This document shows, in pieces, positions 1 through 36,606 of a stretch of 64,000 nt of DNA (position 1 is the first letter of the stretch; each line of letters starts with the position of its first letter). Position numbers and translations under genes: made by a program. Where the stretch lies: contig NC_086108.1 of NCBI RefSeq assembly GCF_963921235.1, positions 9,424,001 through 9,488,000 on the forward strand. Reading direction: 5' to 3'. The DNA is from Mobula hypostoma. Its lineage: Eukaryota. Below the pieces are notes generated by a model. That model was not told the DNA's origin and did no database searches. It saw nothing but the letters and a program-made list of their open reading frames with translations.

Positions 1-256
1 GGCTTGTATAGCTGTGATCTGCCGGCTGTGAGCCTCATCCACATTTTTCAGATCCAACTTCAATACTGCCTCGTTAGCTTCAAACGCTTTGGGACCTCTC
101 AAAAGTCTTTCTTTAAATGACCTCAGCTGCAGCTGTTGAAGAACACCTGGCTGACCACGACACCCGTCTTTACAAGTACACCTGAGTGGATCTCCAGGCG
201 TGGGAGACCTTGGACTGCGTCTGAAAATCACCTCTCAGAGTGTGACATTACACAAG

Positions 257-492
257 GTCAAACAGATTCCAGATTGTTTAATGTCATTTCCAGTGCACAA
301 GTGTAAAGGAGAACAAAATAATTGTTACTCCAGATCCGATGCAGCACAAAAGAAACACAATGAGATAACACACTAATAAAAAAACACAATAAATATAAAT
401 GTATAAGATAGCTTATATACACAGATTGATTGTATGTCCATAAAGTGACACTAGGCACGGGAGTGTCTGTACATAAGGTGACTGAGAGAAAA
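257..492 (-). mobile_element. 3' end fragment of a Rex1/Babar- or L2-like LINE
   Basis: The block 'agatagcttatatac...ggagtgtctgtacataaggtgactga' recurs at ~28220-28580 and ~60810-61070. Those copies continue into 'cctcctccctgatggg', the antisense of a PSGRR-type LINE C-terminal motif. Confidence 0.55.
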
Positions 493-2040
493 TGGTGTTC
501 GGGAAGACTGTAATCAAAAGAGATGCAGGTACTGGAATCTGGAGCAAGGCTTGGCCCACTGGAGGAACTTGGATTCCCCTAGCGGATAGCCTGCTGCAAG
601 TTCAAGCACCCTGTCCAGACGTTGACCTGGCTGGGCTTGAGCACACTGCAGCCGGTGGGATCTTCTTGTTTATCACAATAGCACACAACACCACAAAAGC
701 GACCTCACTAGTTACAGGTGCAGCGAGACACCAACAGGAGACCCCGGTACTGTAAAAATGCAGCTTCTCACTGAGATTAATGCAAAGACTTTCACAGCGA
801 AGGGCATCTTTTTCGCAACAAGATATTTTTCTGCGTCAGCAACTGAGATTTGAGCCACAGTGTTGCTCTGAGTCAGTGGGCTGCAGATTTGATCCAGCAG
901 CTTGGCATCACCTACAGACCCACCCAGCCCTGGTGCAGTCCTGAGGGAATGCCACCCTGCCAGGGGAGGCCCTTAACCTTCACTCTCCAGAGCTGGTGGA
1001 AGTTCCCCAGGGCACCCTGGGTTGACACCTTAATCGCCATTACCGTAAGCTGATGATATGGCCCTTGCACACAGATTGGATTCAGCAAGTCCTCTGATGG
1101 TGATGATATGCAAAAGTTCACTTGCTCCAAAGTGTTTCAGGTGAAGCTGCTTTCTCCCGGCCTATCAGAATCACAACCCAATCCCCTTCCGTTCTATCAC
1201 CCTCTCCCCTGGAACTACTGACCACCTGCACGCACTCTCCCTACCCCTTCCCCCAGCAATCTCCCCTCCATCTGAAAAAGGGTCTCAGCTTGAAAAATCA
1301 GCTGTCCATGTTCCTCCACAGAAGCCATCCGACAGACTGAATTCCTCCAGGTTTCTGGGAGCTCAAAATGGGCAGGCTCCCCCCCACCCTCCCCACCAAT
1401 AAAATGGGACAGGCTCCCCCACTTCCCTCCACCCTCCCTACTAATAAGTCTGCTCCCCTCACACCTTCCCACTGCCCCCAATCTCTGCAGGATCCCACAC
1501 CCATCCTCTCTGCTGGAACACCACCTCATCTGCCTCTTCCTTGGGATCTTCTTTCCCCCGAGATCCCCGTTCTCCAGGCCAGCCATTCCGGGACCCCCGG
1601 TCATCGCCCCACTGAGCAGGGACCCTTGACCAACGGCTAACCATTCCAGGACCCTCAGTCACTGCCCCAGTCTCTCAGAATTTCTCCTCCTCCCCCCCCC
1701 GAACCCAACAAATGACCACAAATTGGGGAAACACAAGGGTACAACAGGGAGAGCGTTGCCACACAGTGCCAGAGACTGGAATTCAATATGGAGCGCACAT
1801 GTTCTCCCTGGGTGCTGGTGTGTGGGGTCCCCCATGCCTTCTGGCTTCCTGACAACATGCAGGGTTCAAGAATGGTCGTCCCTTCCCCCATGTGTGGGTC
1901 TGGGGTAGATTTTGGGCTCTGTGTGTGAATGGCTGGATGCCAGTCAGTACAGACTCTGTGAGCCTGGCTCCCTGCTGCTTCCCTCTCCGGGAGATGTCCG
2001 TGGGGCAGGAGGGGGTGGGGTGGAGGCAGGACAGGCCCCA

Positions 2041-3932
2041 TCACTTCAGCGACTCGATGTAATCGAAGTTCTGGTGCAAGAAGATGATCCGGTTGATGTC
2101 CTCGGGAGACAGTGCCGCCCCAGTGTCGTCCGGCAGCCGGCCGGAGGTGAGGAACGGCCGGCCGGCAGTGGCGGGCACGGCCAGGTAGCGACGGGCCAGG
2201 CTGGCGAGGGCGGGGAAGCGGTGTGCGTTGTCCCGCCACCACTGGAACGGGTCCGTGTGGCGCTTGCGGAGGGGCTCGGCCAGATAGCTCTCCATCTGCT
2301 GGTGGAGCTCCGGAAGGCGGTCCACCGGGTCCTCGCCAAACAGGAGATCGTACTCGCTGGGCTTGGGCTCGGCCGAGGCCCGCTCGCCCTCCGAGGAGGT
2401 GCTGGGCGAGCGCGGCTCCGGGAGCGCGGCGGAGAGCAGCGCCTTCACCCGCCGCTGCACCTGCTCCCGGGACCGGGCGCTCAGGAAGCGCAGGTCTTTG
2501 AAGCGGGGGTCCAGGAAGGAGGCGAGGACGGCGGGGTTGTCCGGCAGCTCCTCGTCACGCTGCAGGCGCCAGCGTTGGCTGATCTCAGAGCGGATCCGGG
2601 CGCAGACGGCGCCGCAGGCCGAGCAGGCCGAGCTGGCCTCGACCGGCTGCTGCCCGAGGGCGGCCAACACCCCGTGCAAGCAAGGCAGCAGGGAGGAGAC
2701 GGAGGCGTTCTGCGGCTCGCCCAGGAAAGACAGGGCCACCTTGAGGGGCTTCAGAATGGGCAGCAGGTTGCGCAGAAGCTCCCACTGGGCATCGGAGAGG
2801 TCGGGCACCGTTGGCTCCCCACCCTCCCACTCCTCCTCCTGTTGCAGAGCATCCCTGAGCGCCCAGCGTGTGTCCAGCAGCCGCCGGCACATGTCGAAGG
2901 TGGTGTCCCAGTGGCACGGGGTGTCGAGCAGCAGGGCTGGGCCCGGGGCCTCGGCGCTGCCCTCGGCCAGCCGGTCGTCGAGGCGGGCAGTGGCCCGCGG
3001 GTCTTGTTGGAAGTGAGCGACGAGGCGGCGGGCCGACAGCAGGGCGTCCTGCACCGCCTCCGTCCGCAGCCCCTGCTTGATGCACTGCTGCAGCGTGCGG
3101 GCGGCGCAGGAGAGGTGCGGGCAGTTGTCGGCCGGCCGCTCCCCGGCCCCGCCGCCGTCGCGCACCACGCAGCTCACCGCCTGCCACGGCACGCCCAGGT
3201 CGCCGAGGGCCGAGCGCAGCAGCTCCCGGCTGCCCGTGGCCGCGGGCCCGGTGCTCAGCACGCAGCGCGCCGGCCTCCAGCGGCCGTCGATGAAGTGCGC
3301 CGACACGGTCAGGTAGGCCCGCCGAGCCGGGGTGCTCCAGCCGTGCGTGGAAAGGGCCATGCAGGGCACGGCGCGAAGCTGGTGGGCCAGCCGCAGCTTG
3401 CACAGCGTGTACCTGTGGCGCAGGTGAGCGGCCAGCTGCGTCCCCGACGGCAGCCGGTAGTTGGGCTCCAGGAAGCCCAGCAGCCGCCTGAAGCCCTGGT
3501 CGGTGACCAGCGAGAGCGGCTGCAGGTCCCGGAACACCATCCCGGTGATCAGGTCGTCGATCGCCTCGTCCCGCTTCTCGACCGCCATCTCCGCGCCGTG
3601 AACCGCCATCTTCTTCAGTTCGGGCTCCTGGCCCATGGACTCCGAGGACGAGGAGCCCTCGTCGGGGAAGGGGCGCCCCTCCGCGTCGCCGAGGTGGTGC
3701 TTGCGCCGCAGGTGCTCCCGCAGGCTGGCCGTGCTGTTGTGGTAACAGAGCTGCTTGCGGCACAGGCTGCACTCCACGCAGCGCTCGTTCAGCCTCCGGA
3801 AGAAATCCCAGGCCTGCGCCCAGTCCTGGCCGCCGCCGCCCGCGGGCAATGCCCGCTTCGTCTTCAGCTCTGCCGCCCTGCGCCTTCCGCCACTGCCCAG
3901 CGGGTAGGAGCGCAGCGCCATGGAAATATCGT
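2041..3932 (-). CDS. Last and largest coding exon of a ZBED1-like hAT transposase-derived gene (BED finger 2, hAT RNase H-like core, C-terminal hAT dimerisation domain)
   Basis: Uninterrupted frame to TGA at 2043-2041. BED motif AWDFF..CSLC..YHNSTASLREHLRRKH; hAT segments DLQPLSLV..GF, AYLTVSAHFID, LASFLDPRFK, WW..RFPALASLARRYLAVPAT, LSPEDINRIIFLHQN. Acceptor ccgtctccggcag|ACGAT at 3933/3932, with a CTAAC branch point (~3974-3970) and a long pyrimidine tract. The first ~89 aa of the tracked 719-aa ORF are translated intron. Confidence 0.92.
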
Positions 3933-5259
3933 CTGCCGGAGACGGGGAGGGGAGCCAGGAGGTAGGTAGGTTAGAGGGCGCAGGTGGAGGTGAGGGAGGG
4001 AGGGTCAAGGGAGTGAGGGGAAACGAGGGAGAGTGAGGGGGTGAGAGAAGGGGAGAGAGTGGGGGGTGACAGTGGGGGTGAGAGAGAGGATGAGAGCAGG
4101 GGAGGGAGAAGGGGAGAGGGAAGGGGTGAGAGTGGGGGAGAGAGAGTGAGGGGGAAGTGGGGGGAGAGAGTGGAAGAGAGATTTCAAGTTTAATTATCAT
4201 TTAATCATACACATGATCATAGCTAAATGAAATACGTCCCTATAGGGCCAAGACAAAACAGAGAACCAACAGCACACAGTGCATAAAGCACATACAGTTA
4301 CTGTCACAGATAAACATAGTTATAACACAAAAGTCTCGCCCAAGTCCCTGAGTGTCATGATGATACCCTGGAGCCAATTTTCTGCAAGAACAAGCCTGCA
4401 GCAGTTCCTCATCTCACACAAGTGCCAGCCGCATACGAATGCGTTCCAGCTTGTCTGCCGAGCGAACACTGGAGGGCAGCACCCATGGTAGTGATCAGTA
4501 TCCAACCTCGCACTGTTACTGTGTATCAGCCTCCCACCTGTGATATTGGCTCAGCTCAGATTATCTCGTGGGAGTGGAGCTTGTCCCCAGCCTGACTTGC
4601 CACGATCTCCCTCTTTAACGGCTCCCATTCACTCACTGTCTCAATAACCTTGTCTGCAGCAAATCCTCTGTCAGAGACCATGAGACACAGCAGCAGAATT
4701 AGGCCATTTGGCCCATCGATTCTGCTCTGCCATTTCATCACAGCTGATCCATTTTCCTCTCAACCCCAATCTGCTGCCTTCTCCCCGTAACCTCTGACAC
4801 CTTTACAAATCAAGAACTTGTCAAACTCTGCTTAAATATACCCAATGTTATGGCCTCCACAGCTGCCTGTGGCAATGAATAACACAGATTCACCACTCCC
4901 TGGCTAAGGAAATTCCTTCTCATCTCTGTTCTAAATGGATGTTCTTCTGTTCTGAGGCTGTGCCCTCTGGTCCTCAACTCCCCTGCCATACGAAACATCC
5001 TCTCCACATGCACTCCATCGAGGCCTTTCAACGTTCAATAGGTTTCAAAGAGATCGCCCCCCCCAGCCACTCTTCTGAACTCCAGTGCATACAGGAACAC
5101 AGCCATTAAACACTCCTCATCCATTAACCCTTTCATTTTTGGATGTCTCCTCAACATCCTCCCTCCATAAGATCCTTTTCTGATTCAGGTCCTTTGAGTT
5201 GACATGTTAACTCCATTTCACTCCCTGTTTCCTACAACTGATGCTGCCGTCACTTGCGA

Positions 5260-6200
5260 CTCCTTCATTTCTCAGACATGTGGGCTCACCCCACCTTCCT
5301 GCTACTGTAACAGAGATAGAGTTCCTCTTGTCTTTGCCTACCACCCCATGAGTTTCCACAACCAACACGTCATCCTCTGCATCTCCAAAGGGATCCGACC
5401 ACTAAACACATCTTGACCTCTGCCCCTCTCTGCTTTCTGCAGGATTGCTCCCTCCACAATTCCCTTGTTCATCTGTCCCTCCCCACTAATCTCCCCCTGG
5501 CAATTATCCCTGCCACTGGCTAAAGTGCCTCACCTCCCTCACCCCCATTCAGGCCTCCAAACAGCCCTTCCAGATGAGGCAACACTTCACCTGCGAATCT
5601 GTTAGGGTCATCTATTCTGTCTGGTGCTCCTGATGTGGCCTCCTCTACACTGGTGAAACTCTTCGGAAATCGGGGAGACCACTTTGCTGAGCACCTCCGC
5701 TATATCCACCAAAAGCGTAACTTCCCGGTGGCCAAACATTTTAATTCCTAATCTCATTCCCATTCCAACATGTCGGTCTTGTTCCGCGATGAGGCCCCCC
5801 TCAGGGTGAAGGAGCAACACCTTATGGGTGGCCTCCAAACCGATGACATGTATATAGATTTCTCTCCCTCTCTTCTTCTGTTCCCCACTCTGGCCTTTTA
5901 GCTCTCCTCACCTGCCTATCACCTCCCCGTGGGTCCCCTCCTCCGTCCCTTTCTCCAATGGTCCACTTTCCTCTTCCATCAGATTCCCTCCTCTCCAGCC
6001 CTTTACCTTTCCCACCCGCCTGGCTTCATCTATCACCTTCTGGCTAGCCTCCTTTCCCTCCTCCTACCTTCTTATTTCTGGCACCTTCCTCTTTCTTCCT
6101 CAGTCCTGAAGAAGGTTCTGGGCCCAAAACGTTGCCTGTTTATTCCTTTCCACAGATGCTGCCTGACCTGCTGAGTTCCTCCAGCACTTTGTGTGTGTTG
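5260..6200 (+). mobile_element. Degenerate Penelope-like element, 3' portion (GIY-YIG region and tail)
   Basis: Colinear with 35600-36600 (RDRVPLV..YHP, aacacttcacctgcgaatct, gctgcctgacctgctgagttcctccagca tail); frameshifted. Confidence 0.8.
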
Positions 6201-6320
6201 CTTCTCTCTCCAGATTGAACCTGACCTGCTGCAGAATACTTTAGCCTCCTTGCAGTGTTCTGAGGGGCCCTGAGTGCTGCCTAGGGTTAATGTAACAGGA
6301 CACAGTGAGCCACGCTGTAC

Positions 6321-6456
6321 CTTCGATTACTGGAGGGTAGGTGTCACCATCTCCCAGGGCGGAGTGCCATTCCAGTTCCTCACCTTCCTCGAGCTGGGCT
6401 GCACACTCCCGCAACATGTTGGAAATCCTCTTACTGCTCTGCGAGGTGTGGGATGC
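6321..6456 (-). CDS. Internal linker exon of the ZBED-like gene (ASHTSQSSKRISNMLRECAAQLEEGEELEWHSALGDGDTYPPVIE)
   Basis: Acceptor ttctttcgttcattctccccag|GCA and donor GAAG|gtacag (alternative GAAG|gtgagg ending at 6384). The 136-nt exon is open and runs phase 0 to phase 1, exactly bridging the phase-0 donor at 10941 and the phase-1 acceptor at 3932. Confidence 0.7.
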
Positions 6457-7904
6457 CTGGGGAGAATGAACGAAAGAAGATCAGTCCTTCCCTTGCAGGC
6501 CCGGCCCTGGGACAGGGTAAGGAACGGCATTGTGTCTGTGCATAGCAGAGGTGAGAGTTGGGGTTAAGTTGCCTACACAGACTGGAGGGCGTCAAATTGA
6601 CCATCAGCTGAGCTTCATGCATCATTAAAATTGGCGTAAATTAGAACTTGGAGTAAAATAACACCACAGTCTTTCTCCAACTGGGTTGAGGGTTTTACAG
6701 GTGTTCTGCCCTTCGGGAAATTCATTTATGTTTTTCTATGTGATTGAGTACATTCAACTTTTATATTAATGAGCAGTTTCTGATCTGTATTAGGTCACTT
6801 TCTGTGCAGAGAGGATAGCACATTAGCTGGCAAAAAGCCAGAGGTTTATGGTAGGCGCAAAAGAAGTTTCTATCTGAAGCCACCCTGTTATCTCCCCAGC
6901 AGAAGCATTGCTTGTAAGTAGATGTTATATTGTTTAGAAGTTAATGTAAATGTATCAATAAGATTTTGCTGAAATAGAATAGGTATTACCGGCTGCTCAT
7001 AAGACCATCCACCACCTGCTCCCATGGCTTCACCGGACCCTGATTGGGGAGGCTAAGCAGATGCTACACCTTGCCCAAGGGTGACCTGCAGGCTAGTTGA
7101 GGGAAGGAGCACCTTACATCTCCCTTGGTAGAGATGTATCTCCACCCCGCCACCCTAATGTGGTTGAGAGCGATAATTAATCAGACATGATGGAATGATG
7201 GAGCAGACTCACTGAATTGAATGACCCAATTCTGCTCCCATGTCTCATGCTTTGAAAAAAAAAACACTTTCAAGTTGTGCCAAACTAACTAAGGATCAAC
7301 TTTATTCATCCAATCCCTACTAACCGCCTGTTACGCCAGTGGCGTTTAGGGCCGCAGTGAAGGCCCTCCATGTCTGTCTGTATAGAAGGTTTCTTCATTG
7401 CTGTTTCTGTAACAATTTTATTTGACCAGTCAGGGTTGTTGGCCCGGAGCTGAACACCAGAACCTGGAGGACTGGTGGACCACTCTTAGTCTGGCCTCTA
7501 CCCTTTGACCTGTTTGGCATGGGTGACCCTACCAAGAGCCAAAACATAAAGCCCTGACTCCAGACAACATAGTTCTCTGGGGCATCGAGGCATACCAGCC
7601 TCCAAACTACGGCTAGGTTATGGTCCTCTTGGGGAATTCATCATGTCTCTTTACATTAGGAATTTGCTGTGATGTGTTGGTTAGGGCGCGACATGCAACA
7701 AAGAACAAAATTCAACAGTTATAAGAAAAAGGATTTAAATTAAAAAAATAAACACGTTAAAGCATGGAATAAAATGTACACAAATACATAAATGTAAACA
7801 ACATTATAAAGGGAGATTTGGAGTGTTTACAGTGCACTGCAGTGACAGACTAATAGAGCTCATGATACGTAACTAAATGAATCCCTTCTGTCTGCACATG
7901 ATCC

Positions 7905-8420
7905 ATATCAGAATCTGGTTTAATATCACCAGAATGTGTCGTGAAATTTGTTAACTTTGCCGCAGCAGTTCAATGCAATACATGATAATATAGAAAAAAC
8001 TGTGAATTACAGTAAGTATATAGATATATAAAATAGATAAATAAGTGGCATAAAAATAGAAATAAAAAGGTAGTGAGGCAGTGTTCATGGGCTCATTGTC
8101 CATTCAGAAATCTGATGGCAGAGGGGAAGAAGCTGTTCCTGAATCGTTGAGTGTGTGCCTTCAGGCTTCTGTACCTCCATCTTGATGGTAAGTGAGAAGA
8201 GAGCATGAACTGGGTGATGGGGGTCCTTAATGATGGACGCTGCCTTTTTGAGGCATCGCTCCTTGAAGATGTCCTGGAGGTTACAGAGGCCCGTGCCCAT
8301 GATGGAGCTGACTGAGTTTACAACTCATTTTGATCCTGTGCAGTAGCCCCCCCCAATACCAGTCATGACGCAGCCAGTTAGAATGCTCTTCACAGTGCAT
8401 CTGTAGAAATTTGTGATAAA
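7905..8420 (-). mobile_element. Rex1/Babar-like LINE 3' fragment
   Basis: Minus translation RCLKKAASIIKDPHHPVHALFS, followed by an A/T-rich tail. Confidence 0.7.
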
Positions 8421-9458
8421 TCTGTCTTCGCTACATATTTGAGTGTTTCTAAGAACATTTTAAAAGTTTCTATTGTACCTACCTCCACCGCCATGCCTGG
8501 TATCTACAGTACCACTGTGTAAAAAAAATTTTGTGCATCTCCCTCTCTCACCTTAAATGCATGGTCATAGGGGACTACAGTGCAGAAACAGGCCCTTTGG
8601 CCCATCTAGATCATGCGGCACTGGTTTTCTATCTACCCGCTCTGCACCATAGCCTCCCATACCCCTCCTATCCATGACCCTGACTAAACTTCTCTTAAAT
8701 GTTGCAATCAAACCCGTATCCCACCACTTCCGCTGGCAGCTCATTCCACACTCACACCACCCTCTGAGCGAAGACATTCCCCTCATGTTCCCCTTACGTA
8801 TTTCACCTTTCACCCTGAACCTATGACCTCTGTATAAGGGGGAAAGCCTGCAAGCATCTACCCTGTTACAGAATCCTGAGAAAAAAATACTGTCTACTCG
8901 ATATATCAACGTCTCTAATAATCTTATGAACTTCTATCAGGTCTCCTCTCAACCCTGGCTCTCCAGAGAAGACCCACAAATTTGTCCAACCTCATACCCT
9001 CTAATCCAGGCAGCATCCTGGTAAACCTCATCTGAACCCTCTCTGAGGCCTCCACACTTTTCCTGTACTGGGGTGACCAGAACTGAATGCAATACTCCAG
9101 GTATTGGGTGATGGACAGGGTGGAGATACGTCTCTACTAAAGGAGGTGTAAGGCGCTCCTTCCTTCCACTAGCTTGCAGGTCACCTGTCTTGTAAAGACA
9201 CTACCCAGATGAAGGCAATGGAAAACCACTTCTGTGGAAAAATTTGCCAAGAAGCATGACGACCACGATCATACGACACGGCTTGTAATGATGATGTCAC
9301 CTGGCATGGCCCATAAAGATGATGATGATGCGTAAACAAAGACAGACAAACAACCAGTGTGTAAAAGAAGGCAAATAAGAAATAAGCAAATAATACTGAG
9401 AACGTGAGTTGTGGAATCCTCGTAAAATGAGTCTCTACGTTGTAGAATCAGTTCAGTG

Positions 9459-10217
9459 TTGTGGGGAGTGAAGTTATCCACACTGGTTCAGGAGCCTGAT
9501 GGTTGTGGGGTGATAACTGTTCCTGAACCTGGTGGTGTGGGACCTGAGGCTCATTGTGGTGAGTGAAGTTATCCACACTGGTTCAGGAGCCTGATGGTTG
9601 AGGGGTAATAACTGTTCCTGAACCCGGTGGTGTGGGACCTGAGGCTCATTGTGGTGAGTGAAGTTATCCACACTGGTTCAGGAGCCTGATGGTTGTGGGG
9701 TAATAACTGTTCCTGAACCTGGTGGTGTGGGACCTGAGGCTCATTGTGGTGAGTGAAGTTATCCACACTGGTTCAGGAGCCTGATGGTTGTGGGGTAATA
9801 ACTGTTCCTGAACCTGGTGGTGTGGGACCTGAGGCTCACTGTGCTGAGTGAAGTTATCCACACTGGTTCAGGAGCCTGACGGTTGTGGGGTAATAACTGT
9901 TCCTGAACCTGGTGGTGTGGGACCTGAGGCTCATTGTGGTGACTGAAGTTATCCACACTGGTTCAGGAGTCTGATGGTTGTGGGGTAATAACTGTTCCTG
10001 AACCTGGTGGTGTGGGACCTGAGGCTCATTGTGGGGAGTGAAGTTATCCACACTGGTTCAGGAGCCTGACGGTTGTGGGGTAATAACTGTTCCTGAACCT
10101 GGTGGTGTGGGACCTGAGGCTCATTGTGGTGAGTGAAGTTATCCACACTGGTTCAGGAGCCTGATGGTTGTGGGGTAATAACTGTTCCTGAACCTGGTGG
10201 TGTGGGACCTGAGGCTC
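9459..10217. repeat. 95-bp tandem repeat, 8 copies, derived from a LINE 3' coding end
   Basis: Unit 'gtgaagttatccacactggttcaggagcctgatggttgtggggtaataactgttcctgaacctggtggtgtgggacctgaggctcattgtggtga' starts at 9468, 9563, 9658, 9753, 9848, 9943, 10038 and 10133. Copies are near-identical and have no spacers. Confidence 0.95.
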
Positions 10218-10637
10218 CTGTACCTTTTTCCTGAGGGCAGCTGTGAGAAGAGAGCATGTCCTGGGTGGTGGGGGTCCCTGATGATGGATACTACTTTCTT
10301 GTGGCAGCACTCTGATCATTAAGGACCCCCATCATAGGAAACTAAGTACCCCCTCCTTTTCTGATATCAGGCCATGAGGTGCCCAGACCAGTTACATACA
10401 TCCAGTTCTTTAGCCAGGGAGTGGTGAATCTGTGGAATTCATTGCTGCAGGTGGCTGTGGAGGCAAAGTCTTTATGTATATTTAAGGCAGAGGATGATAG
10501 ATTCTTGATTGATCAGGGCATGAAGGGACTCAGGGAGAAGGCAGGAGACTGGGGCTGAGAGGGATAAAGGATCAGCGGTGATGGAATGGCAAAGCAGGCT
10601 CGATGGGCCAAACGGCCTAATTCCTCTCCTATGTCTT

Positions 10638-10942
10638 ATGATCCACAGTTCACATGTTTATATTTGGGGTAAAGACTCACAGTACACGTATGATGCACTG
10701 TACACATGTTTATATTTGGAATAAAGACTCAACAGTACACGTATGATCCACAGTTCACATGTTTATATTTGGGGTAAAGACTCACAGTACACGTATGATC
10801 CACTGTACACATGTTTATATTTGGAATAAAGACTCAACAGTACACGTATGATCCACAGTTCACGTGTTTATATTTGGAATAAAGACTCACAGTACACGTA
10901 TGATGCACAGTTCACATTTATACTTGGAATAAAGACTCACAG
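10638..10942. repeat. 52/53-bp minisatellite, ~5.8 copies, alternating variants
   Basis: Unit atgatccacagttcacatgtttatatttgg(gg/aa)taaagactca(a)cagtacacgt; the last copy abuts the BED exon donor. Confidence 0.9.
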
Positions 10943-11201
10943 AGCTATCAATGCCAATAAGTTCAGTGATCTTCGGACACCTCTCCTTCACACTGACAGT
11001 CTTCTCTGCCGTGCTGTGGGCGGCGGGCAGGTCACCACGATCGCTCTCCTCTGTGAAGTGGATGTGATGATTCCGTTGCAGGTGTAACCGCAGCACTGTG
11101 CTGCTGCCGGAACACACCAGCTGGGCGCCACACACGTTGCAGATGATGGCTTTGTCGTCCCTCCGCGTCACGTACTTCCAGACCTCGCCGACGCGGGGCA
11201 T
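10941..11201 (-). CDS. First coding exon of the ZBED-like gene (BED zinc finger 1)
   Basis: gagccATG Kozak context. MPRVGEVWKYVTRRDDKAIICNVCGAQLVCSGSSTVLRLHLQRNHH fits the BED W..C-x2-C..H-x3-4-H pattern. Donor TCT|gtgagt after 87 codons; candidate upstream acceptor ccctctttcag at ~11234. Confidence 0.8.
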
Positions 11202-12699
11202 GGCTCTCCACCTGTGACTCCGCGGTCACGTCACTGAAAGAGGGTGATGACATCACACTCCCGCAAATGCCCGACCGCAGCACAGACCTCCAGCCAGCAC
11301 CTCGCCTCAGCATTCCCACATTCCCTCCATCCACCTCCCTCTTTCTGGAGGCCATCTTGGAGCTAGAGGCCTGTGTAAGCGCACGTGGGTGGGATGGAGG
11401 GACAGGGTTTTCTTTGTGCTTGTTGTGTTCTGCCGAGCATTGTGGCATGCTGTGTTGGCGCTGGAACGTGTGGCGACACTTGTGGGCTGCCCCCAGCCTG
11501 TTCTTGCCTGTGTTGGCTGTGAACACAAACGACGCACTTCACAGCAACACCCACAAAATGCTGGAGGGACTCAACAGGTCAGGCAGCATCCGTGGAAAAG
11601 AGTAAACAGGCTGAGACCCTTCAGTGGGGCTGGCAAGGAAGGGGGAAGATGCCAGAATAAAAAGCTGCAGGGAAGGAGAAGATGAAGCCATGATAGGCAA
11701 AGGGCTGGAAGAGGAAGAATCTGATGGAAGAGATTGGACCATAGGAGGAAGGGACCCAGGGGGAAGTAAGAGGCAGGTGAGAAGAGATAAGAGGTCAGAG
11801 TGGGGAATAGGAGAGGGGGGAGAATTTGTTCAGCGGAAGGAGAAAACGATGTTCATGCCATCAGGTTGGAGGCTACCCACATGGAATACAAGGTGTTGCC
11901 CCTTCACCCTGAGGGTGGCCTCATTATATCACTCTATGTTCCGATGCACGTGTGATAAATAAATGAATCTGAACCTTTCTTTTGATCTGGCTTAGGTCAG
12001 TCTTTTTATCCGTCCTACTTGATCATTCCCTGGACCTCTCAAACTCTCATCGTCTTCCCACTACCCTCATCCCTCCTCCACTAACCCTCCATTTCTCCCT
12101 ATTCCCCTCAGCTGCTTACTTCATTGTACACCCCTCATTCCATCCCCCTTTACCTCCCACCACTCCATCTCTCTGTTCTCCTTGTTACCTTTCACTGTTC
12201 CATTCCCTCGTTTTTATCCATCTTTCTCATTCCCCTCATCCACACTTTTCAGTCCACCCCCCCCCCCCAATTAGGGTGCATTCTGGAGATATAGAATATA
12301 GCAAATAGTAATTTTCACAGCAACCAGTCTCAGATCTGAATGTGGATTGTAGATTGAATTTAAAATGCAGCTCGGGAAACACCCAAATGACCTGACATGT
12401 CCATATTTGCATGAATGCAGCTCAGAGACAACAATAATTAACTTTTCATTTTGGGTGTGTTGGTGTGAAGATCTAGGTACATATTTGAAAAGTTACATGT
12501 AACTTATGAATACTGTACAGTGTAGCTATAGAAATTTACCTGTTACCTTTGTCCTTTAACATATAAAAATGTGCTGTGTTGTTGGGTCTGGGAGTCTCTC
12601 GAGTGCCTCCAAAGGCTGTCAGCTTGTGTGTGTGTGATGAATAAAGGTTTTTAAATCTACCAGCTACATCTCTCCAGTGACTTCATTCATGGTCACAAC

Positions 12700-13555
12700 A
12701 ATCCTCACCCTCATGGCTTCCATTCCTCCTCCACTCCAATTACCCCATTTCTCAAATCCTCAAACTTATTCCCTTCCACTTCCCCTCTCATTCCCTTCCT
12801 CCATCCCTTTCCCTGTCCCACCCATTCCCTCCCAATCTTCCCCCTTTCATTCTTTATTCCCTTTATCCACATTTCTCATTTTCCAACTCCCTCCACCCTT
12901 ATTCTCTATCCTCTCATGATCCTCCTTTCATTCCCTCCATCCTTCCTCCTCTTTCCCTCAACCCTCCCTCCTTCTGACCTGTTAGTCATTTCCTCCATCC
13001 ATCGCCCACTCCCACCCTGTCGCTCATTCCTCCCTCCCTTCCTCATTCCCTCCATCCCTCCGTCATTCATACCCTTTATCCACATTTGCAACTCGCTCCA
13101 CCCTTGTTCTCTATCCTTTCATGGTGCTCCTTGTTCATTCTCTCCATCCTCCCTCCCCTCTTTCCCTCAATCCTCCCACTTTCCTACCTGTTACTCATTC
13201 CCTCCCTCCTTTACTCACCCCCACCCTCCATTACCCATCCACTCCATCACTCATTCTCACCCTCCTTCACTCATCCCTTCCCTCCCTCCATCACTCACAC
13301 ATTCCCTCTTTCCCTTCCTCCCTCCCACAGTCACTTTGCATCAGTCACCCCCCGCTGTCACTCAATCCCTCCTTCCCTCCCTCACTCATCCCCTCCCTCA
13401 CGCATTCCTTCCTTCCCTCCGTCACTCATTCCCTCCCTCCCTCCTACAGTCACTTTCTGTCAGTCATCCCCTCCCAGTTATGGATTCACTCACTCACTCA
13501 TCTCCTCCCTCCCACAGTCACTCATTCATTCCCTCCATCACTAACCCATTCCCCA
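12700..13555. repeat. Pyrimidine-rich low-complexity tract (CCCT/CATT/CACT motifs)
   Basis: Strongly C/T-biased plus strand over ~850 bp; a similar tract lies at ~12020-12270. Confidence 0.85.
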
Positions 13556-14100
13556 GATTGCGGGGGTGGGCGGTCCTACCTACATCGCGGTCCGGGAGCC
13601 TGCGCTGCGGCCGCCGGTCAGTGGTCGCCACTCTGACCACAGGGCCGGGCGGGGGGAGCGGGAGGCCCGCCGAGACTGAAGATTCAGATCCCTGCGCCCC
13701 GCCCGCGCTCAGCGGGATCGCGTTTCGAAAACGCGGCCGGCCGCCCCGCCTCTTGTCCGCCCGCCGCCGCCGTCCACCTCCTCTCCGTCGCCATCGCAAC
13801 GCGGCCTAGTCCTGCTTCGAGCCCGACTTCAGTCGGAAAGAGCCTCGGGGTCGATTAGCGGTTGGTCTCCCTGGGTGATAACGGAGGGGAATTTTATCGT
13901 GGGCCGGTAGTCGCGGGATGTGGGAGGAGGTTGGGGTCGGGGCTTCAGTTTGCTCCGACAGGCTGGTGAGGACGGTCGATCATGAAGTGTCGGTGCCGGC
14001 AGTGGAGCAGCGGAGACTGGGACTGGGGTTGGGGTGTGGGAATTCGGTGCGGAATGGGTTTGAGGGAGCTTGTGGACGGGGACCTCAGGTGAGGAATGGG
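13555..14100. promoter_or_regulatory. CpG island; candidate bidirectional promoter for the ZBED-like gene (minus) and MRPS12 (plus)
   Basis: Dense CpG with several GC boxes (GGGCGG/CCGCCC near 13568, 13647, 13699, 13741, 13757). The plus strand is C-rich to the left of ~13810 and G-rich to the right. Candidate first-exon donors: minus TAG|gtagga at ~13579; plus CTG|gtgagg at ~13966 and CAG|gtgagg at ~14089. Confidence 0.75.
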
Positions 14101-17795: not shown

Positions 17796-19010
17796 CATAG
17801 AAACATAGAAACATAGAAAATAGGTGCAGGAGTAGGCCATTCGGCCCTTCGAGCCTGCACCGCCATTTATTATGATCATGGCTGATCATCCAACTCAGAA
17901 CCCTGCCCCAGCCTTCCCTCCATACCCCCTGACCCCCATAGCCTCAAGGGCCATATCTAACTCCCTCTTAAATATAGCCAATGAACTGGCCTCAACAGTT
18001 TCCTGTGGCAGAGAATTCCACAGATTCACCACTCTCTGTGTGAAGAAGTTTTTCCTAATCTCGGTCCTAAAAGGCTTCCCCTCTATCCTCAAACTGTGGC
18101 CCCTCGTTCTGGACTTCCCCAACATCGGGAACAATCTTCCTGCATCTAGCCTGTCCAATACTTTTAGGATCTTATACATTTCAATCAGATCCCCCCTCAA
18201 TCTTCTAAATTCCAACGAGTACAAGCCCAGTTCATCCAGTCTTTCTTCATATGAAAGTCCTGCCATCCCAGGAATCAATCTGGTGAACCTTAGTTGTACT
18301 CCCTCTATGGCAAAGATGTCTTTCCTCAGATTAGGGGACCAAAACTGCACACAATACTCCAGGTGTGGTCTCACCAAGGCCTTGTACAACTGCAGTAGTA
18401 CCTCCCTGCTCCTGTACTCGAATCCTCTCGCTATAAATGCCAGCATACCATTTGCCTTTTTCACCGCCTGCTGTACCTGCATGCCCACTTTCAATGACTG
18501 GTGTATAATGACACCCAGGTCTCGTTGCACCTCCCCTTTTCCTAATCAGCCACCATTCAGATAATAATCTGTTTTCCTATTTTTGCCACCAAAGTGGATA
18601 ACTTCACATTTATCCACATTAAATTGCATCTGCCATGAATTTGCCCACTCACCCAACCTATCCAAGTCACCCTGCATCCTCTTAGCATCCTCCTCACTGC
18701 TAACACTGCCACCCAGCTTCGTGTCATCCGCAAACTTAGAGATGCTGCATTTAATTCCCTCATCCAAGTCATTAATATATATTGTAAACAACTGGGGTCC
18801 CAGCACTGAGCCTTGTGGTACCCCACTAGTCACCGCCTGCCATTCTGAAAAGGTCCCGTTTATTCCCACTCTTTGCTTCCTGTCTGCTAACCAATTCTCC
18901 ACCCACACCAATACCTTACCCCCAATACCGTGTGCTTTAAGTTTGCACACTAATCTCCTGTGTGGGACCTTGTCAAAAGCCTTTTGAAAATCCAAATATA
19001 CCACATCCAC
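17796..19010 (-). mobile_element. CR1 LINE, 5'-truncated, well preserved RT C-half
   Basis: ORFs with YLDFQKAFDKVPH, GVPQGSVLGP, KFADDTK, LVRPHLEYCVQFWSP; (CATAGAAA)n 3' tail at 17796-17820. Confidence 0.93.
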
Positions 19011-19161
19011 AAATGGATGTGGAAGGGGAACGGGTGCAACTTGGATGTGAAGCTCCTCACCCTAAGAATTCTTGTTGAAGAGAGCACAGGTTATGGTTAC
19101 TATTCTATAGATTTATTGAGTATACCCACGAGAAAATGAATCTCAGAGCCGTATATGGTGA

Positions 19162-22100
19162 TATAGAAACGCAGAAAACCTACAGTACAATACAGGCCCT
19201 TTGGCCCATAAAGCTGTGCCGAACATGTCCTTACCTTAGAAATTTCCTAGGGTTACCCATAGCCCTCTTTTTTTCTAAGCTCCATGTACCTATCCAGGAG
19301 TCTCTTAAAAGACCCTATTGTATTCACCTTCACCACCGTTGCCGGCAGCCCATTCCACGCACTCACCACTCTGCGTAAAAAAAAAAAGTACCTGACATCT
19401 CCTCTGTACCTACTTCCAAGCACCTTAAAACTGTGCCATCTCGTGCTAGCCATTTTAGCCCTGGGAAAAACCTTCTGACTATCCACACAATCAATGCCTC
19501 TCATCATCTTATACACCTCCGTCAGGTCACCTCTCATCCTCCGTTGCTCCAAGGAAAAAAGGCTGAGTTCACTCAACCTATTCTCATAAGGCATGCTCCC
19601 CAATCCAGGCAACATCCTTGTAAATCTCCTCGGCACCCTTTCTATGGTTTCCATATCCTTCCTGTAGTGAGGCGACCAGAATTGAGCACAGTACTCCAAG
19701 TGGGGTCTGACCAGGGTCCTATATAGCTGCAACATTATCTCGGCTCCTAAACTCAGTCCCACAATTGATGAAGGCCAAAGCACCATATGCCTTCTTCACC
19801 ACAGAGTAAACCTGCGCAGCAGCTTTGAGTGTCCTATGAACTCGGACCCCAAGGTCCCTCTGATATTTCACACTGCCAAGAGTCTTATCATTAATGCTAT
19901 ATTCTGCCATCATATTTGACTTACCAGAATGAACCACCTCACAGTTATCTGGGTTGAACTCCATCTGCCACTTCCCAGTCTAGTTTTGCATCCTATCGAT
20001 GTCCCACTGTAACCTCTGACAGCCCTCCACACTATCCACAACACCTCCAACCTTTGTGTCATCAGCGAATTTACTAACCCATCCCTCCACTTCCTCATCC
20101 AGGTCATTCACGAAGAGTAGGGGTCCCAGAACAGATCCAGACCAGAGGCACACCACTGGTCACCAACCTCCATGCAGAATATGACCCGTTTACAACAACC
20201 CTTTGCCTTCTGTGGGCAAGCCAGTTCTGGATCCACAAAGCAATGTCCCCTTGGATCCCATGCCTCCTTACTTTCTCAGTAAGCCTTGCATGGGGTACCT
20301 TGTCAAATGCCTTGTTTAAATCCATATACAGGTTTCCCCCGCCATCCGAAGGTAGAGTGTTCCTATGAAACGGTTCGTAAGCCGGAATGTCGTAAAGCGA
20401 AGAAGCAATTACCATTAATTTATATGGGAAAAATTTGTGAGCGTTCACAGACCCAAAAATAACCTACCAAATCATGCCAAATAATACATAAAACCTAAAA
20501 TAACAGTAACATATAGTAAAAGCAGGAATGATATGATAAATACACAGCCTATACAAAGTAGAAATACTTTTCCACAATCATTGCCTGCACTGTTCTCCGT
20601 AGCGAAAATCTCACGCAAGCGCTCTCCAGTAACCTTTAAGCTATGAAGGTGCCAAATCATACCAAATATCACGTAAAAATACACAGCCTATATAAAGTAG
20701 AAATAATGTATGTACAGTGTAGTATCACTGACCGGAATTGGGACAGTGCCGAGCACACTGATGATGGTGTGTTAGGCTGAGTCGTCGGAGGCTGGGGTGG
20801 TGCAGTGGCAGTGAACCGATACCGATCCGTGAAGAATGCAGGGGTACAGCGGTGGCTGGGACGCACCCAGCACATCTTTAAGAAAAAAGCTGAAAAGAAC
20901 AAGCTAATTAATTAGGTGCTGCCCGGCACGTAAATGTCGGCCCAGATCAGAGGTGAAGCAATCAGCAATCGCCTCTGATCTGGGCCGGCATTTATGTGCC
21001 GGGCGGCACCTATTTAGTAAGCTTGTTTATTTCGGCTTTCTTTCTTAAAGATGTGCCGAGTGCGTCTCGGCTACCACAGCATTCTCCGTGAATCGGTATC
21101 TGTCCGCAGCCCGGGTATTGGGGTGGTGGGACACTGGGGTGTCATCTCATCGTCAATCAGGGCAAGCAGGTCATCTTCTATGTCTGCCTGCCTCGATGGC
21201 GAAGGTCGAGGTTCGTCGTCTGCTGTGGCTGATGTGGAAGTCTTGCTTGACTGCTTAGCCTCGCGCATTTTTAGATCATACAGTTCTTTGTAAGCACTCA
21301 AACCATCCTGCAAATATGCCCTAAACCAACGTACACTTGCAAAGTTAAAGTTGTACTTTATCATTGCAGCGAAAATCTCACGCAGTTGCTTCACGTTCAG
21401 TTCCTGGACGACTTCACTTTCGGTCCGTTCGCTACTGCATTCGGTTTTGATTGTTATCCTTTCCTCTTCCAATTGCATCAGCTCTTCATCTATCAGTTCT
21501 TGGTCATGGGATGCCAAAACCTCTTCAACATCATCTTTGTCAACTTCCACAAGCCAAACTCACTTCGTCCTTACTTCGTTCACCACGATCAAAATGCTTA
21601 ATTATGTCTAGTTTTACGCTAAGTGTAACACCCTTACGAGCTCTTTTAGCCTTTTCCGATACCTTAGAACTCATCTTGCTAGTGGCTGCTCACAGGCACG
21701 TGATTAAGCAATGCTGGCGAGAATGCAGTTCCGAATCCGGGAGAGAGCGGCTGCTCAGGGCGTGCGCTGCTTTTTTTTTAATCACGCGCTGCCTTTTCTC
21801 GTAACAGTGAGAACACATTCTGTTAGTGAAAACAGGTAACTAATGTAGGTCTTTCGTAACAGTGAGATTTCGTAAAGCGAACGTTCGAAAAGCAGGGGAC
21901 ACCTGTACACTATATCTACTGCTCTTCCTTCATCAATGTGTTTAGTCACATCCTCAAAAAGTTCAATCAGGCTCGTAAGGCATGACCTGCCTTTGACAAA
22001 GCCATGCTGACTATTCCTAATTATATTATGCCTCTCCAAATGTTCATAAATTCTGCCTCTCGTGATCTTCTGCATCAGCTTACCAACCGATGAAGTAAGA

Positions 22101-22505
22101 CTCACCAGTCTATAATTTCCTGGGCTATCTCTACTCTCTTTCTTAAATAAGGGAACAACGTCTGCAACCCTCCAATCCTCTGGAACCTCCCCATGGATGA
22201 TGCAAAGATCATCACCAGAGGCTCAGCAATCTCCTCCCTCGCCTCCCACAGTAACCTGGGGTACATTTTGTCTGGTTCCGGTGAATTATCCAACTTGATG
22301 CTTTCCAAAAGTTCCAGTACATCCTCTTTCTTAATATCTACATGCTCAAGCTTTTCAGTCCGCTGTAAGTCATCCCTACAATCGCCAAGATCCTTTTCTG
22401 TAGTGAATACTGAAGCAAAGTATTCGTTAAGTACCTCTGCTATCTCCTCTGGTTCCATACACACTTTTCCACTGTCACACTTGATTGGTCCTATTCTCTC
22501 ACATC
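19162..22505 (-). mobile_element. Degenerate CR1 LINE interrupted by a Tigger-like insertion
   Basis: RT fragments LVRPHLEYCAQFWSP, KAFDKVPH, SQHGFVKGRSCLT, AEVLNEYFASVFT. Removing 20329-21907 rejoins the VYMD codons, as in the uninterrupted copy at ~51790. Confidence 0.9.
20329..21905 (-). mobile_element. Internally deleted Tigger/pogo-like (Tc1/mariner superfamily) DNA transposon
   Basis: TA duplication at 20327-20328 and 21906-21907; imperfect TIRs CAGGTTTCCCCCGC / CAGGTGTCCCCTGC. The N-terminal MSSKVSEKAKRARKGVTLSVKLDIIKHF (HTH_psq-like, from ~21674) abuts the acidic C-terminal EVDKDDVEEVLASHDQELIDEELMQLEEE; no DDE domain is present. Confidence 0.88.
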
Positions 22506-30944: not shown

Positions 30945-31261
30945 ATGACACACCTAATATACACCCTTGCATTAAAGTGCTAAGTGACTCCAGCTATTTT
31001 TTCTCTGGTAAAATTAAAGGTTAAAACCCACGTCTTTAGCGTTCCTGTACCTCCTCCCTGATGGTAGCAATAACATTTCCCATGTGTGAGGGACCTCAGT
31101 AATGAATGTCGCCTTTTGTCTTTGTTGGTGGAGAGGTTATAGTTTTAGTTTTAGAGAGAGGTATCGTATTTAATGAACTGAATTTAAATTCCCCATTAGT
31201 TGTGGAGAACTAGTTCAGTACTTTGGTTCTAATTCAATAACTTCGCTGTCTTTCCCTCCAG

Positions 31262-31698
31262 GGGCAGTGAGGTTGGCGGGTTCCTCACCAACTTCCCTCC
31301 TCCAACGGGTGCTGCCATCGCCAGGGTTGACGTCGCCCCCTGCAGCTCAGTGGCAGAATAGCCGGTGCATGGCCACCCTCCACCAGATGCACAAGGCAGG
31401 CAAACCCAAGAGGCCCCCTCCCAAGCTGGGCCCCACCTTCGGGCACCCCCAGCTCAAGGGTGTGGTACTCAAAACCATGATCCGCAAGCCCAAGAAGCCC
31501 AATTCGGCCAACCGCAAGTGCGCCCGGGTCCGGCTCAGCAACGGCAAGGAGGTGATCTGCTTCATCCCCGGAGAGGGCCACAACCTCCAGGAGCACAACA
31601 TCGTGCTGGTGGAAGGGGGGAGGACGCAGGACCTGCCCGGCGTCAAGCTCAAGATTGTGCGGGGGAAGTACGATTGTGCCCACGTGCAAAAGAAGTAG
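31262..31698 (+). CDS. MRPS12: MRPS12 main coding exon, mitochondrial ribosomal protein uS12m
   Basis: [91 protein letters not shown] carries the uS12 signature with the mitochondrial-type C-terminus. Acceptor ctgtctttccctccag|GG. Confidence 0.97.
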
Positions 31699-36605: not shown

Positions 36606-36606
36606 T

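Follow-up and report, generated by a model that had tools for sequence, protein, structure and literature searches.

The window analysed here is a 64-kb stretch of Mobula hypostoma DNA, in which an initial annotation, made from the letters alone, had proposed a three-exon minus-strand gene encoding two BED zinc fingers and a domesticated hAT transposase. When the three exons were joined by script (261 + 136 + 1892 = 2289 nt, phases 0 then 1) and translated, they gave 762 aa plus a stop with 0 internal stops, confirming the proposed exon coordinates, GT-AG ends, phases and product. The features at the locus are, in window positions:

13601..14000, no strand: CpG-island-like stretch, GC 0.68, CpG observed/expected 1.08
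11202..11233, minus strand: 5' untranslated part of exon 1, behind an acceptor-like tttcAG ending at 11234 (putative exon boundary)
10941..11201, minus strand: coding exon 1, 261 nt, aa 1-87, with start codon 11201-11199, BED finger 1 and donor GTGAGT at 10940
11067..11186, minus strand: BED zinc finger 1, aa 6-45 (Pfam zf-BED, E 4.1e-10, 40 bits against a cut-off of 20.6)
6457..10940, minus strand: intron 1, 4,484 nt, GC 0.45
6321..6456, minus strand: coding exon 2 (linker), 136 nt, aa 88-133 with a split codon
3933..6320, minus strand: intron 2, 2,388 nt, with a 3' end made of a ~240-nt CT-rich tract (3960-4200) plus CAG
2041..3932, minus strand: coding exon 3, 1,892 nt including the stop, with BED finger 2, an RNase-H-like hAT core and a dimerisation domain
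3697..3816, minus strand: BED zinc finger 2, aa 172-211 of the 762-aa protein (Pfam zf-BED, E 1.8e-7)
2740..3582, minus strand: hAT transposase-like core, ~aa 250-530, which aligns with the catalytic domain and the insertion domain of Hermes (hand-converted coordinates)
2068..2295, minus strand: hAT C-terminal dimerisation region (Pfam Dimer_Tnp_hAT, PF05699, E 1.9e-9, 37.6 bits against a cut-off of 21.4)
1460..2040, minus strand: 3' untranslated region, at least (contig X1 record 2, gapless over 1460-2816 with 0 mismatches)

Read on the minus strand, the start codon lies in the context gccATGc and exon 1 ends in AGCTCT/GTGAGT, with the donor G at 10940. Exon 2 follows the acceptor ttctccccAG (first base 6456) and ends in GAAG/GTACAG with its donor at 6320, while an alternative in-frame donor, AAG/GTGAGG, is found within it at 6383. 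Exon 3 (GC 0.71, GC3 0.93) begins at 3932 behind a long CT-rich tract and cggcAG, and its stop codon occupies 2043-2041. The first finger, with its CxxC...HxxxH motif at aa 21-46, does sit on an exon of its own, 7,009 nt upstream of exon 3 (the initial annotation had said 7 kb), and intron 1 holds tandem arrays of a 95-bp unit repeated 8 times (9459-10217) and of a 52-bp unit (10637-10942) that abuts the exon-1 donor.

Evidence of splicing came from assembled contigs of public runs, compared with window positions 1-12500; that these runs are RNA was deduced from the contigs that skip introns, the run label being a guess. The deepest contig, X1 record 3 (2,017 nt, depth 102, 0 mismatches), matches 3527-3932, then carries 135 unplaced letters that correspond to the 136-nt exon 2 minus one ambiguous base, and then matches 10940-11235. 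In addition, X4 record 25 joins 3932 exactly to 6321-6456, and a contig from a second organism, X2 record 10, has 3932 linked to 6321-6453. Both predicted junctions (10941/6456 and 6321/3932) are thus present in run contigs, and these contigs do not stem from a retrocopy, since the genome contains only one full copy of the gene. The matches of X1 record 3 and X2 record 13 both end at 11235 and are followed by ~1,000-1,180 letters that are absent from window positions 1-12500, which, together with the acceptor-like tttcAG at 11234, indicates that there is at least one further upstream non-coding exon. The gene is therefore transcribed and spliced, with at least three coding exons and at least one upstream non-coding exon. 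The CpG-island-like stretch at 13601..14000 is a candidate promoter or first non-coding exon. As a separate observation, contig X1 record 2 lacks 73 nt of exon 3 (2817-2889), a stretch that does not have GT-AG ends.

The initial annotation had described this gene as hidden, but the 762-aa model is letter-for-letter identical to RefSeq protein P0048, "E3 SUMO-protein ligase ZBED1 isoform X1 [Mobula hypostoma]". The gene model is correct and already known at the database level, and its discovery value is small, the exact protein being in RefSeq and the gene being of a well-known kind (domesticated hAT/ZBED regulators). RefSeq also holds an isoform X2 (P0003, 662 aa), which is a suffix of the 762-aa protein that starts at a Met in exon 2 (6417-6415) and carries finger 2 only. 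It may be asked whether the main product is a protein with a single finger (of 662 aa, or of 626 aa if begun at Met137), the BED1 exon being a minor or non-productive 5' alternative. Besides isoform X2, the annotations of Mobula birostris (P0049), Hypanus (P0004) and Scyliorhinus (P0009), which contain short forms only, point in this direction, as do the ray-finned-fish proteins, which begin at a Met aligned to Met137. Moreover, the exon-1 donor lies inside the 52-bp tandem array, where extra GTGAGT motifs at 10890, 10785 and 10680 would break the frame, and two contigs read through it into the intron (X2 record 13 over 10837-11235 and X3 record 20 over 10762-11043), showing either that exon 1 is not always spliced as modelled or that DNA or pre-mRNA is present. 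However, the deepest contig joins exon 1 through to exon 3 (contig depth being a poor measure), the first finger has been kept from chimaera to rays at 35-91% identity and, in a very small sample, the sole change within the finger in the second organism is silent (T35) compared with three changes in the spacer behind it. We thus consider it unlikely, albeit worth keeping in mind, that the one-finger protein is the main product, and we retain the two-finger protein as a genuine product of the gene.

The initial annotation had also suggested that the gene is restricted to one lineage, with introns, a linker exon and an additional finger acquired by a separate domestication. The phylogenies contradict this: in an IQ-TREE analysis of 37 rows, all 22 candidate orthologue rows formed one clade (SH-aLRT 100, stem 0.73), and in a FastTree analysis of 71 rows, 27 rows formed one clade with a support of 100. 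The branching order within this clade is that of the species tree, both in its cartilaginous part, (chimaera,(sharks,batoids)), and in its bony part, ((Polypterus,(Polyodon,(gar,teleosts))),(coelacanth,(amphibians,(turtle,lizard,(alligator,birds))))). The 115 orthologue hits include birds, alligator, turtles, tuatara, squamates, amphibians, coelacanth and ray-finned fishes, with 0 mammals among them, which hints at a loss worth checking. Members share ~100 invariant columns, with BED2, core and C-terminal motifs in common and a nearly invariant BED2 column block in the alignment. The ray protein is 36-56% identical to its orthologues outside rays, and the ray members of the clade combine a very high GC content with fast evolution (batoid stem of 0.40 plus long tips versus 0.04-0.09 for sharks). 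These orthologues bear the database names ZBED1-like, ZBED4-like, zbed4l2 or si:dkeyp-117b8.4, some being "uncharacterized", and our literature search found no paper naming or discussing the zbed4l2 / si:dkeyp-117b8.4 gene family. One-to-one orthology to catalogued genes, which the initial annotation had regarded as speaking against its reading, is thus found at the database level, and the tree places the window gene as the devil-ray orthologue of an old jawed-vertebrate gene rather than as a lineage-restricted invention.

The linker exon is not a novelty either, since lobe-finned fishes and tetrapods have an N-terminal stretch that aligns over it. The N-terminal BED1 exon alone seems confined to cartilaginous fishes, being present in each of the 10 full-length models examined from this group compared with 0 of 18 sarcopterygian models, and BED1 together with the linker is conserved among the proteins of shark, ray, skate and chimaera. 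Since the chimaera has BED1, this finger is at least as old as the common ancestor of living cartilaginous fishes. The extra finger on its own exon is thus the part of the lineage-specific proposal that stands, while the gene itself is not lineage-restricted. Although this distribution of BED1 and the position of the clade apart from the ZBED1 of the same genome would fit a recent domestication in one lineage, the species-tree order of the hits across vertebrates, the alignable sarcopterygian linker and the BED1 of the chimaera make such a scenario very unlikely, and we rejected a lineage-restricted origin in favor of a jawed-vertebrate gene. In both trees, its clade falls among ~600-aa hAT-like proteins, with a lamprey protein among its nearest neighbors, but with a support of only 85-91 for the joining branches, which leaves a separate domestication as a possible reading. 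Tentatively, the clade could go back to a so far unrecognised domestication of its own, in which an Ac-type hAT transposase was recruited at the base of jawed vertebrates or earlier, separate from the ZBED1 and ZBED4/6 events and kept since except apparently in mammals, with a BED exon added in cartilaginous fishes that would allow one- and two-finger isoforms; we regard this as a possibility rather than as our expectation.

Considering that most source names read "E3 SUMO-protein ligase ZBED1(-like)" and that the domain order, BED plus hAT, is the same, the gene could be taken for the ray orthologue of ZBED1 (hDREF), acting as a SUMO E3 ligase and transcription factor. However, the same genome has a ZBED1-type locus on another contig (C21, L002), an intact single ORF of 667 aa that is 26% identical to the window protein. 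Compared with 2ct5, the solved BED domain of ZBED1, the BED finger of L002 gives a match of E 3.4e-33, whereas the family profile of the window gene reaches E 1.4e-4 only, and the two genes lie far apart in both trees. Since other members of the clade are called ZBED4, zbed4l2 or "uncharacterized", these names are automatic best-hit labels, the RefSeq name being one transferred by similarity and no mark of orthology. Orthology to ZBED1 is thus highly improbable and was rejected, in agreement with the initial annotation, which had held the two genes to be distinct. The public name is misleading for a gene whose clade is a distinct ZBED paralogue.

The relation to hAT transposases is clear from the family profile (A1), which matched Hermes chains at E 4.2e-19 over profile positions 263-540 (core plus insertion domain) and also at the C-terminus. 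Three residues of the window protein, H, D and G, align to Hermes chain positions 180, 248 and 572, which we take to be the catalytic Asp-Asp-Glu residues: a His stands in the first Asp column (ALSTHGW), the second Asp is retained (VVRDG) and a Gly stands in the Glu column (PATAGRPF versus ASSAASERTF). Elsewhere in the clade, these columns read D-D-T in sharks and E-D-D in gar and teleost rows; since sharks keep Asp at the first two positions, it is less evident for some members than for others that catalysis has been lost. A genome search, whose stricter first look may have missed weak matches, found one full copy (100%) plus five matched segments at three other loci with 22-33% identity, and none of the 16 inverted-repeat pairs in 1-12500, which are interspersed repeats in introns, brackets the ORF (2041-4200) as terminal inverted repeats would. 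The single copy, the lack of flanking terminal inverted repeats and the replacement of D-D-E by H-D-G identify a domesticated gene, as the initial annotation had proposed for this intron-bearing, two-finger hAT/ZBED locus. Despite its BED plus hAT architecture and its ~30% similarity to many ~600-aa hAT-like proteins, there is next to no chance that it is simply a copy of a hAT transposon, either still active or immobilised in recent times, with an ORF joined to nearby exons by chance, considering these three features, the spliced transcripts and a frame intact across the whole jawed-vertebrate tree, and this explanation was rejected.

Two copies of residues 270-762 were predicted to form a homodimer, with an ipSAE of 0.49 compared with 0.00 for the best of 3 controls, a contact agreement of at least 62% between model runs and a partner pLDDT of at least 74. 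The mark used for such predictions was reached by 21 of 30 microbial proteins solved as one-chain pairs and by 0 of 23 solved single chains; among eukaryotes, 17 of 29 pairs attained it, yet only 1 of 7 without an older solved relative, and the result for the ray protein may reflect the memory that the model has of solved Hermes assemblies. The predicted interface (527-557 and 659-690) coincides with the invariant family motifs SFL.E.N..S and YD.L.G.DP. Altogether, the window gene is very probably a host gene with an ancient origin in a hAT transposase of the Ac/Hermes type. It would be the devil-ray member of the zbed4l2-type orthologous group of jawed vertebrates, and it encodes a putative non-cutting, dimeric DNA-binding regulator. 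By analogy with characterised ZBED proteins, its product would no longer cut or move DNA but would act as a dimeric, sequence-specific DNA-binding regulator, the BED fingers reading DNA and the dead core plus C-terminal domain serving as a dimer scaffold. Including or omitting the BED1 exon would then alter the DNA-reading module, and this exon, with the annotated one- and two-finger isoforms, may offer a case of a domesticated transposase gaining a DNA-binding module via an exon.

The coding regions of ZBED4, ZBED6 and ZBEDX are intronless. Among known systems, ZBED1 (hDREF/TRAMP) is described by Hayward et al. (2013, PMC3606216) as a domesticated hAT transposase with a BED finger, a hAT-derived core and a dimerisation domain, an organisation shared by the window gene. 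The ZBED1-type ORF of the same genome differs from it by having one finger and a single-ORF coding region instead of two fingers and introns and, by eye, by keeping the Asp (..TADMW..) and the Glu (..SERLF..) at the sites that His and Gly occupy in the window gene. Hayward et al. report a DDE triad conserved across ZBEDs, unlike the H-D-G of the window gene, and list two BED fingers ahead of the hAT core in ZBED6, a DNA-binding repressor, two in Xenopus ZBEDX, which lies upstream of LRRC61, and four in ZBED4. Multiple fingers before a hAT core are thus shared with these three genes, a comparison made by description only. Concerning ZBEDX / ZBED6CL (C7ORF29), the window gene has the two fingers, no LRRC61-like ORF was found among the four other large window ORFs scanned, and an MRPS12-like ORF is the only other non-repeat gene recognised in the window. 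Hermes and other Ac-type hAT transposases resemble the window protein over core, insertion domain and C-terminus and in the predicted homodimer, whereas the gene differs from them by its triad, its single unbracketed copy, its introns and its vertical inheritance, in species-tree order, from the ancestor of jawed vertebrates onwards. Its closest match is the zbed4l2 / si:dkeyp-117b8.4 group, with which it forms one clade sharing BED2, core and C-terminal motifs, the cartilaginous-fish members differing by their extra N-terminal BED finger exon.

When the three exons of the minus-strand gene (11201-10941, 6456-6321 and 3932-2041) were joined by script, their 261+136+1892 = 2289 nt gave 762 residues without internal stop, with the following start codon and splice borders:

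Start codon and splice borders of the three-exon gene
11201-11199, minus strand: start codon, context gccATGc
10941, minus strand: exon 1 end, donor AGCTCT/GTGAGT (sequence reading)
6456-6321, minus strand: exon 2 borders, acceptor ttctccccAG and donor GAAG/GTACAG (sequence reading)
6383, minus strand: alternative exon 2 donor AAG/GTGAGG, 63 nt before the main donor, in frame, giving a 73-nt exon 2
3932, minus strand: exon 3 acceptor, a ~240-nt CT-rich tract then cggcAG (sequence reading)

The exon-1 peptide carries a Pfam BED finger (BED1; E 4.1e-10), and exon 3, whose large frame runs uninterrupted for 719 codons, carries a second BED finger (BED2; E 1.8e-7) and a hAT dimerisation region (E 1.9e-9). 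When the exon-3 product was used as query in a protein search, a match of 100% identity came up, the 662-aa "E3 SUMO-protein ligase ZBED1 isoform X2 [Mobula hypostoma]", which starts at a Met within exon 2 and spans the 6321/3932 junction exactly; its 90% cluster also contains the 762-aa "isoform X1" (XP_062919681.1), which equals the three-exon model letter-for-letter. Searching for longer proteins with the exon-1 peptide, a short query with too few words, gave only 2 matches among 51 candidates. Splice ends, frame, domains and the identical RefSeq isoform X1 all bear out the three-exon, 762-aa, two-finger hAT gene of the initial annotation, which had also called this gene hidden, a description that does not hold for a protein already in public annotation: the gene was correctly read from raw sequence, but it is already annotated and of a familiar kind. 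Exon 3 is extremely rich in GC (GC 0.71, GC3 0.93, CpG obs/exp 0.8-0.96; introns and flanks have a GC of about 0.45-0.51), and a 686-codon frame is open on its opposite strand (1909-3969, plus strand), surely a by-product of high GC and not a gene.

Four of 13 listed public sequencing runs (X1, X3, X4 and X2, the last from a second organism) were mapped to positions 1-12500; all 13 runs are labelled "RNA? (a guess)" and none is on record as RNA. The predicted 6321/3932 junction is seen directly in two assembled contigs, X4 record 25, where 3674-3932 is joined straight to 6321-6456, and X2 record 10, which has a few differences and joins 3510-3932 to 6321-6453. Exon 1 and exon 3 are both carried by X1 record 3 (2,017 nt, depth 102, 0 mismatches), which covers 3527-3932, then 135 unplaced letters, then 10940-11235; the middle piece is unlisted, and its length is that of the 136-nt exon 2 minus one base fitting both sides. 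The 73-nt exon 2 made through donor 6383 misfits this 135-letter gap, and that donor was used by no listed contig piece (longest pieces shown, 4 runs). Because the own genome holds a single copy of the gene, we read these intron-free joins as spliced RNA and not as a retrocopy.

At its 5' side, X1 record 3 and X2 record 13 stop matching the window at 11235, immediately after a tttcAG, and run on for ~1,000-1,180 letters; therefore, the gene has at least one upstream non-coding exon. A CpG-island-like stretch lies ~2.4 kb upstream of exon 1 (13601-14000; GC 0.68, obs/exp 1.08) and is preceded by long CT-rich low-complexity DNA at 12650-13450; we infer that this stretch could be a candidate for such an exon or for a promoter. 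Two results fit the splicing model less neatly. The exon-1 donor was read through into the intron by X2 record 13 and X3 record 20. X1 record 2 is without 73 nt inside exon 3 (2817-2889), with neither GT-AG ends nor a flanking direct repeat, and the right edge of this gap is crossed by X4 record 23; we treat the skip as an assembly quirk or a rare variant.

The exon-1 donor is abutted by a 52-bp tandem array (10637-10942, 5.9 copies, or 2.9 copies of a 105-bp unit) with GTGAGT copies at 10940, 10890, 10785 and 10680, the first of these four being the donor used. Beyond exon 1, the read-through frame stays open for 17 codons before a stop, and a Hemitrygon RefSeq model (P0050) contains 18 residues of exon-1-type read-through. 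Also in intron 1, a 95-bp unit repeated in 8 copies (9459-10217, 96% matches) yields a ladder of spurious 67-aa minus-strand ORFs. More generally, remnants of retroelements crowd the window, and the ZBED introns are filled by the same repeats: RVT_1 fragments are many (17800-19800, 21800-22500, 34976-38522, 51637-52531 and elsewhere), and one ORF has a GIY-YIG match (E 7e-4) that does not reach the Pfam cut-off. An ORF at 31177-31698 (plus strand), apparently mitochondrial ribosomal protein S12-like (Ribosom_S12_S23, E 5e-27), could serve as a synteny anchor for the ZBED gene.

The initial annotation had also suggested that the gene may be lineage-restricted. A HMMER search of the full library found 9,628 relatives at E ≤0.001, the top 14 matches having E 7e-93 or better, followed by a clear gap to the next at 2e-67. 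A search with the falcon member listed 115 matches, with birds, alligator, turtles, tuatara, squamates, caecilians, salamanders and frogs among the taxa and, among fishes, coelacanth, bichir, paddlefish, gar and many teleosts; mammals are absent from the named rows of these 115 matches, some rows being unnamed and the search word-limited, which is only a hint that the clade is absent from mammals. The orthologue group was recovered with support 100 both in a FastTree tree of 71 rows and in an IQ-TREE mixture-model tree of 37 rows, the latter made of 22 clade members spanning taxa and 15 others (the closest proteins outside the clade, longer proteins with names and two paralogues from the own genome). 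In the IQ-TREE tree, the clade has a stem of 0.73 and its internal order is that of the vertebrate species tree. The gene is thus not lineage-restricted but belongs to a jawed-vertebrate-wide clade. The closest proteins outside it, one from a lamprey and others of ~600 aa that are unnamed and lie on short contigs, join it with a support of only 85-91, so that a separate domestication, as proposed in the initial annotation, is no more than a possibility for this clade. Shark proteins are slow-evolving in the IQ-TREE tree, while those of batoids sit on long branches and deviate in composition; taken with the GC content of exon 3, this pattern suggests that the gene has undergone GC-biased evolution in rays.

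Clade members bear the names ZBED1(-like), ZBED4(-like), "Zinc finger BED-type containing 4-like 2" and "si:dkeyp-117b8.4". The other hAT-like loci of the own genome are placed elsewhere in the tree:

Other hAT-like loci of the own genome
L002, C21:173.17 Mb: ZBED1-type single ORF, 667 aa
L003, C58:15.47 Mb: BED+hAT ORF, 675 aa, with SER.F kept at the aligned Glu position; nearest relative an unnamed 20-member cluster
L004, C67:2.89 Mb: 511-aa ORF, dimerisation domain only, no BED finger; one TAA in the matched region outside the ORF

The BED finger of L002 matches the solved ZBED1 BED domain 2ct5 with E 3.4e-33, compared with only 1.4e-4 for the family profile of the window gene. Given this match and the separate tree placement, the RefSeq name ZBED1 reflects no more than the best database hit; the window gene is not orthologous to ZBED1, and its database label is misleading. 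No literature was found under the clade's database names (zbed4l2, dkeyp-117b8.4, zbed4l), and this jawed-vertebrate-wide clade is apparently without any; a zebrafish "ZBEDX" paper (PMC9859435) concerns a different gene, Zgc:161969.

A linker exon and a second finger had been put forward as novelties. In 45 proteins we looked for the signature C-x2-C-xn-H-x3-5-[H/C] and, using BLAST, for matches to the exon-1, exon-2 and BED2 segments:

BED fingers by group
Cartilaginous fishes, full-length models (10 rows): two fingers in 10/10
Sarcopterygians (18 rows; coelacanth 1, amphibians 6, reptiles 7, birds 4): one finger in 18/18
Ray-finned fishes (14 rows): 9 with one finger, 4 with two (Denticeps, two cyprinids and a sucker) and a sturgeon model with none
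Outgroups (3 rows): not relevant to finger count

Left out of this count were short cartilaginous-fish models that start in exon 2 or at an exon-3 Met and have one finger by annotation (the 662-aa isoform P0003, Hypanus P0004, Mobula birostris P0049 and Scyliorhinus P0009). In the family alignment, the N-termini of sarcopterygian proteins can be aligned with exon 2 and the first part of exon 3 (..KR.S..L....E...YPQ.V.EEISMVF..), and ray-finned-fish proteins start at a Met aligned to ray Met137. The linker is thus no novelty, sarcopterygian proteins having an alignable N-terminal counterpart. The second finger fares better: it has its own exon and is found in all full-length cartilaginous-fish models and in no sarcopterygian row, although four ray-finned rows also have two. 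The extra N-terminal BED of these otomorph teleosts (P0056, P0024, P0032, P0312), a possible homologue of ray BED1, has similar BLAST identity to BED1 and BED2 (33-41%). BED1 on its own exon is either a gain in cartilaginous fishes, in which case it would date back at least to the divergence of chimaeras and elasmobranchs, or ancestral and lost or unannotated in bony vertebrates. What is left of interest is this BED1 exon, apparently specific to cartilaginous fishes, together with the misleading ZBED1 label and the apparent lack of literature on the clade.

By analogy with its family, the protein would bind DNA via its BED fingers and may work as a dimer; whether exon 1 is included or skipped would then decide between a two-finger and a one-finger protein, each reading DNA with a different module, and two protein forms are annotated. 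A two-copy fold of residues 270-762 gave an ipSAE of 0.49 versus 0.00 for the best of 3 controls, with at least 62% contact agreement between runs and a partner pLDDT of at least 74. The ipSAE mark was reached by 21/30 proteins solved as one-chain pairs and 0/23 single chains in a microbial benchmark, and in eukaryotes by 17/29 pairs, with only 1/7 among those without an older solved relative. The fold predicts a symmetric interface (527-557 and 659-690) at the site of invariant motifs of the clade. Because Hermes assemblies are solved, the dimer pass may reflect likeness to them rather than binding.

Could the locus be an ordinary transposon? A six-frame search of the own genome (3.48 Gb) yielded a single full copy plus three further loci (5 matched segments) at 22-33% identity; being a stricter first look, it may have missed weak matches. 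The 16 inverted-repeat pairs in 1-12500 are interspersed repeats within the introns, and none of them brackets the ORF; the arms 4676-4911/10406-10643 and 5789-6202/11543-11924 were rejected as element ends, being high-copy interspersed repeats with run depths in thousands. A profile of 16 family members does match Hermes transposase over the core and C-terminus (E 4.2e-19). By column count in the alignment, positions 180, 248 and 572 of Hermes, which we take to be the catalytic D-D-E, stand opposite His (ALSTHGW), Asp (VVRDG) and Gly (PATAGRPF) of the ray protein; the corresponding residues are D-D-T in sharks and E-D-D in gar and teleost rows. Single-copy, spliced, with a degenerate triad and without bracketing inverted repeats, the window locus is a gene and not a transposon. 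Conservation of the DDE triad across ZBEDs is stated by Hayward et al. 2013 (PMC3606216), whereas the triad is not conserved in the clade of the window gene.
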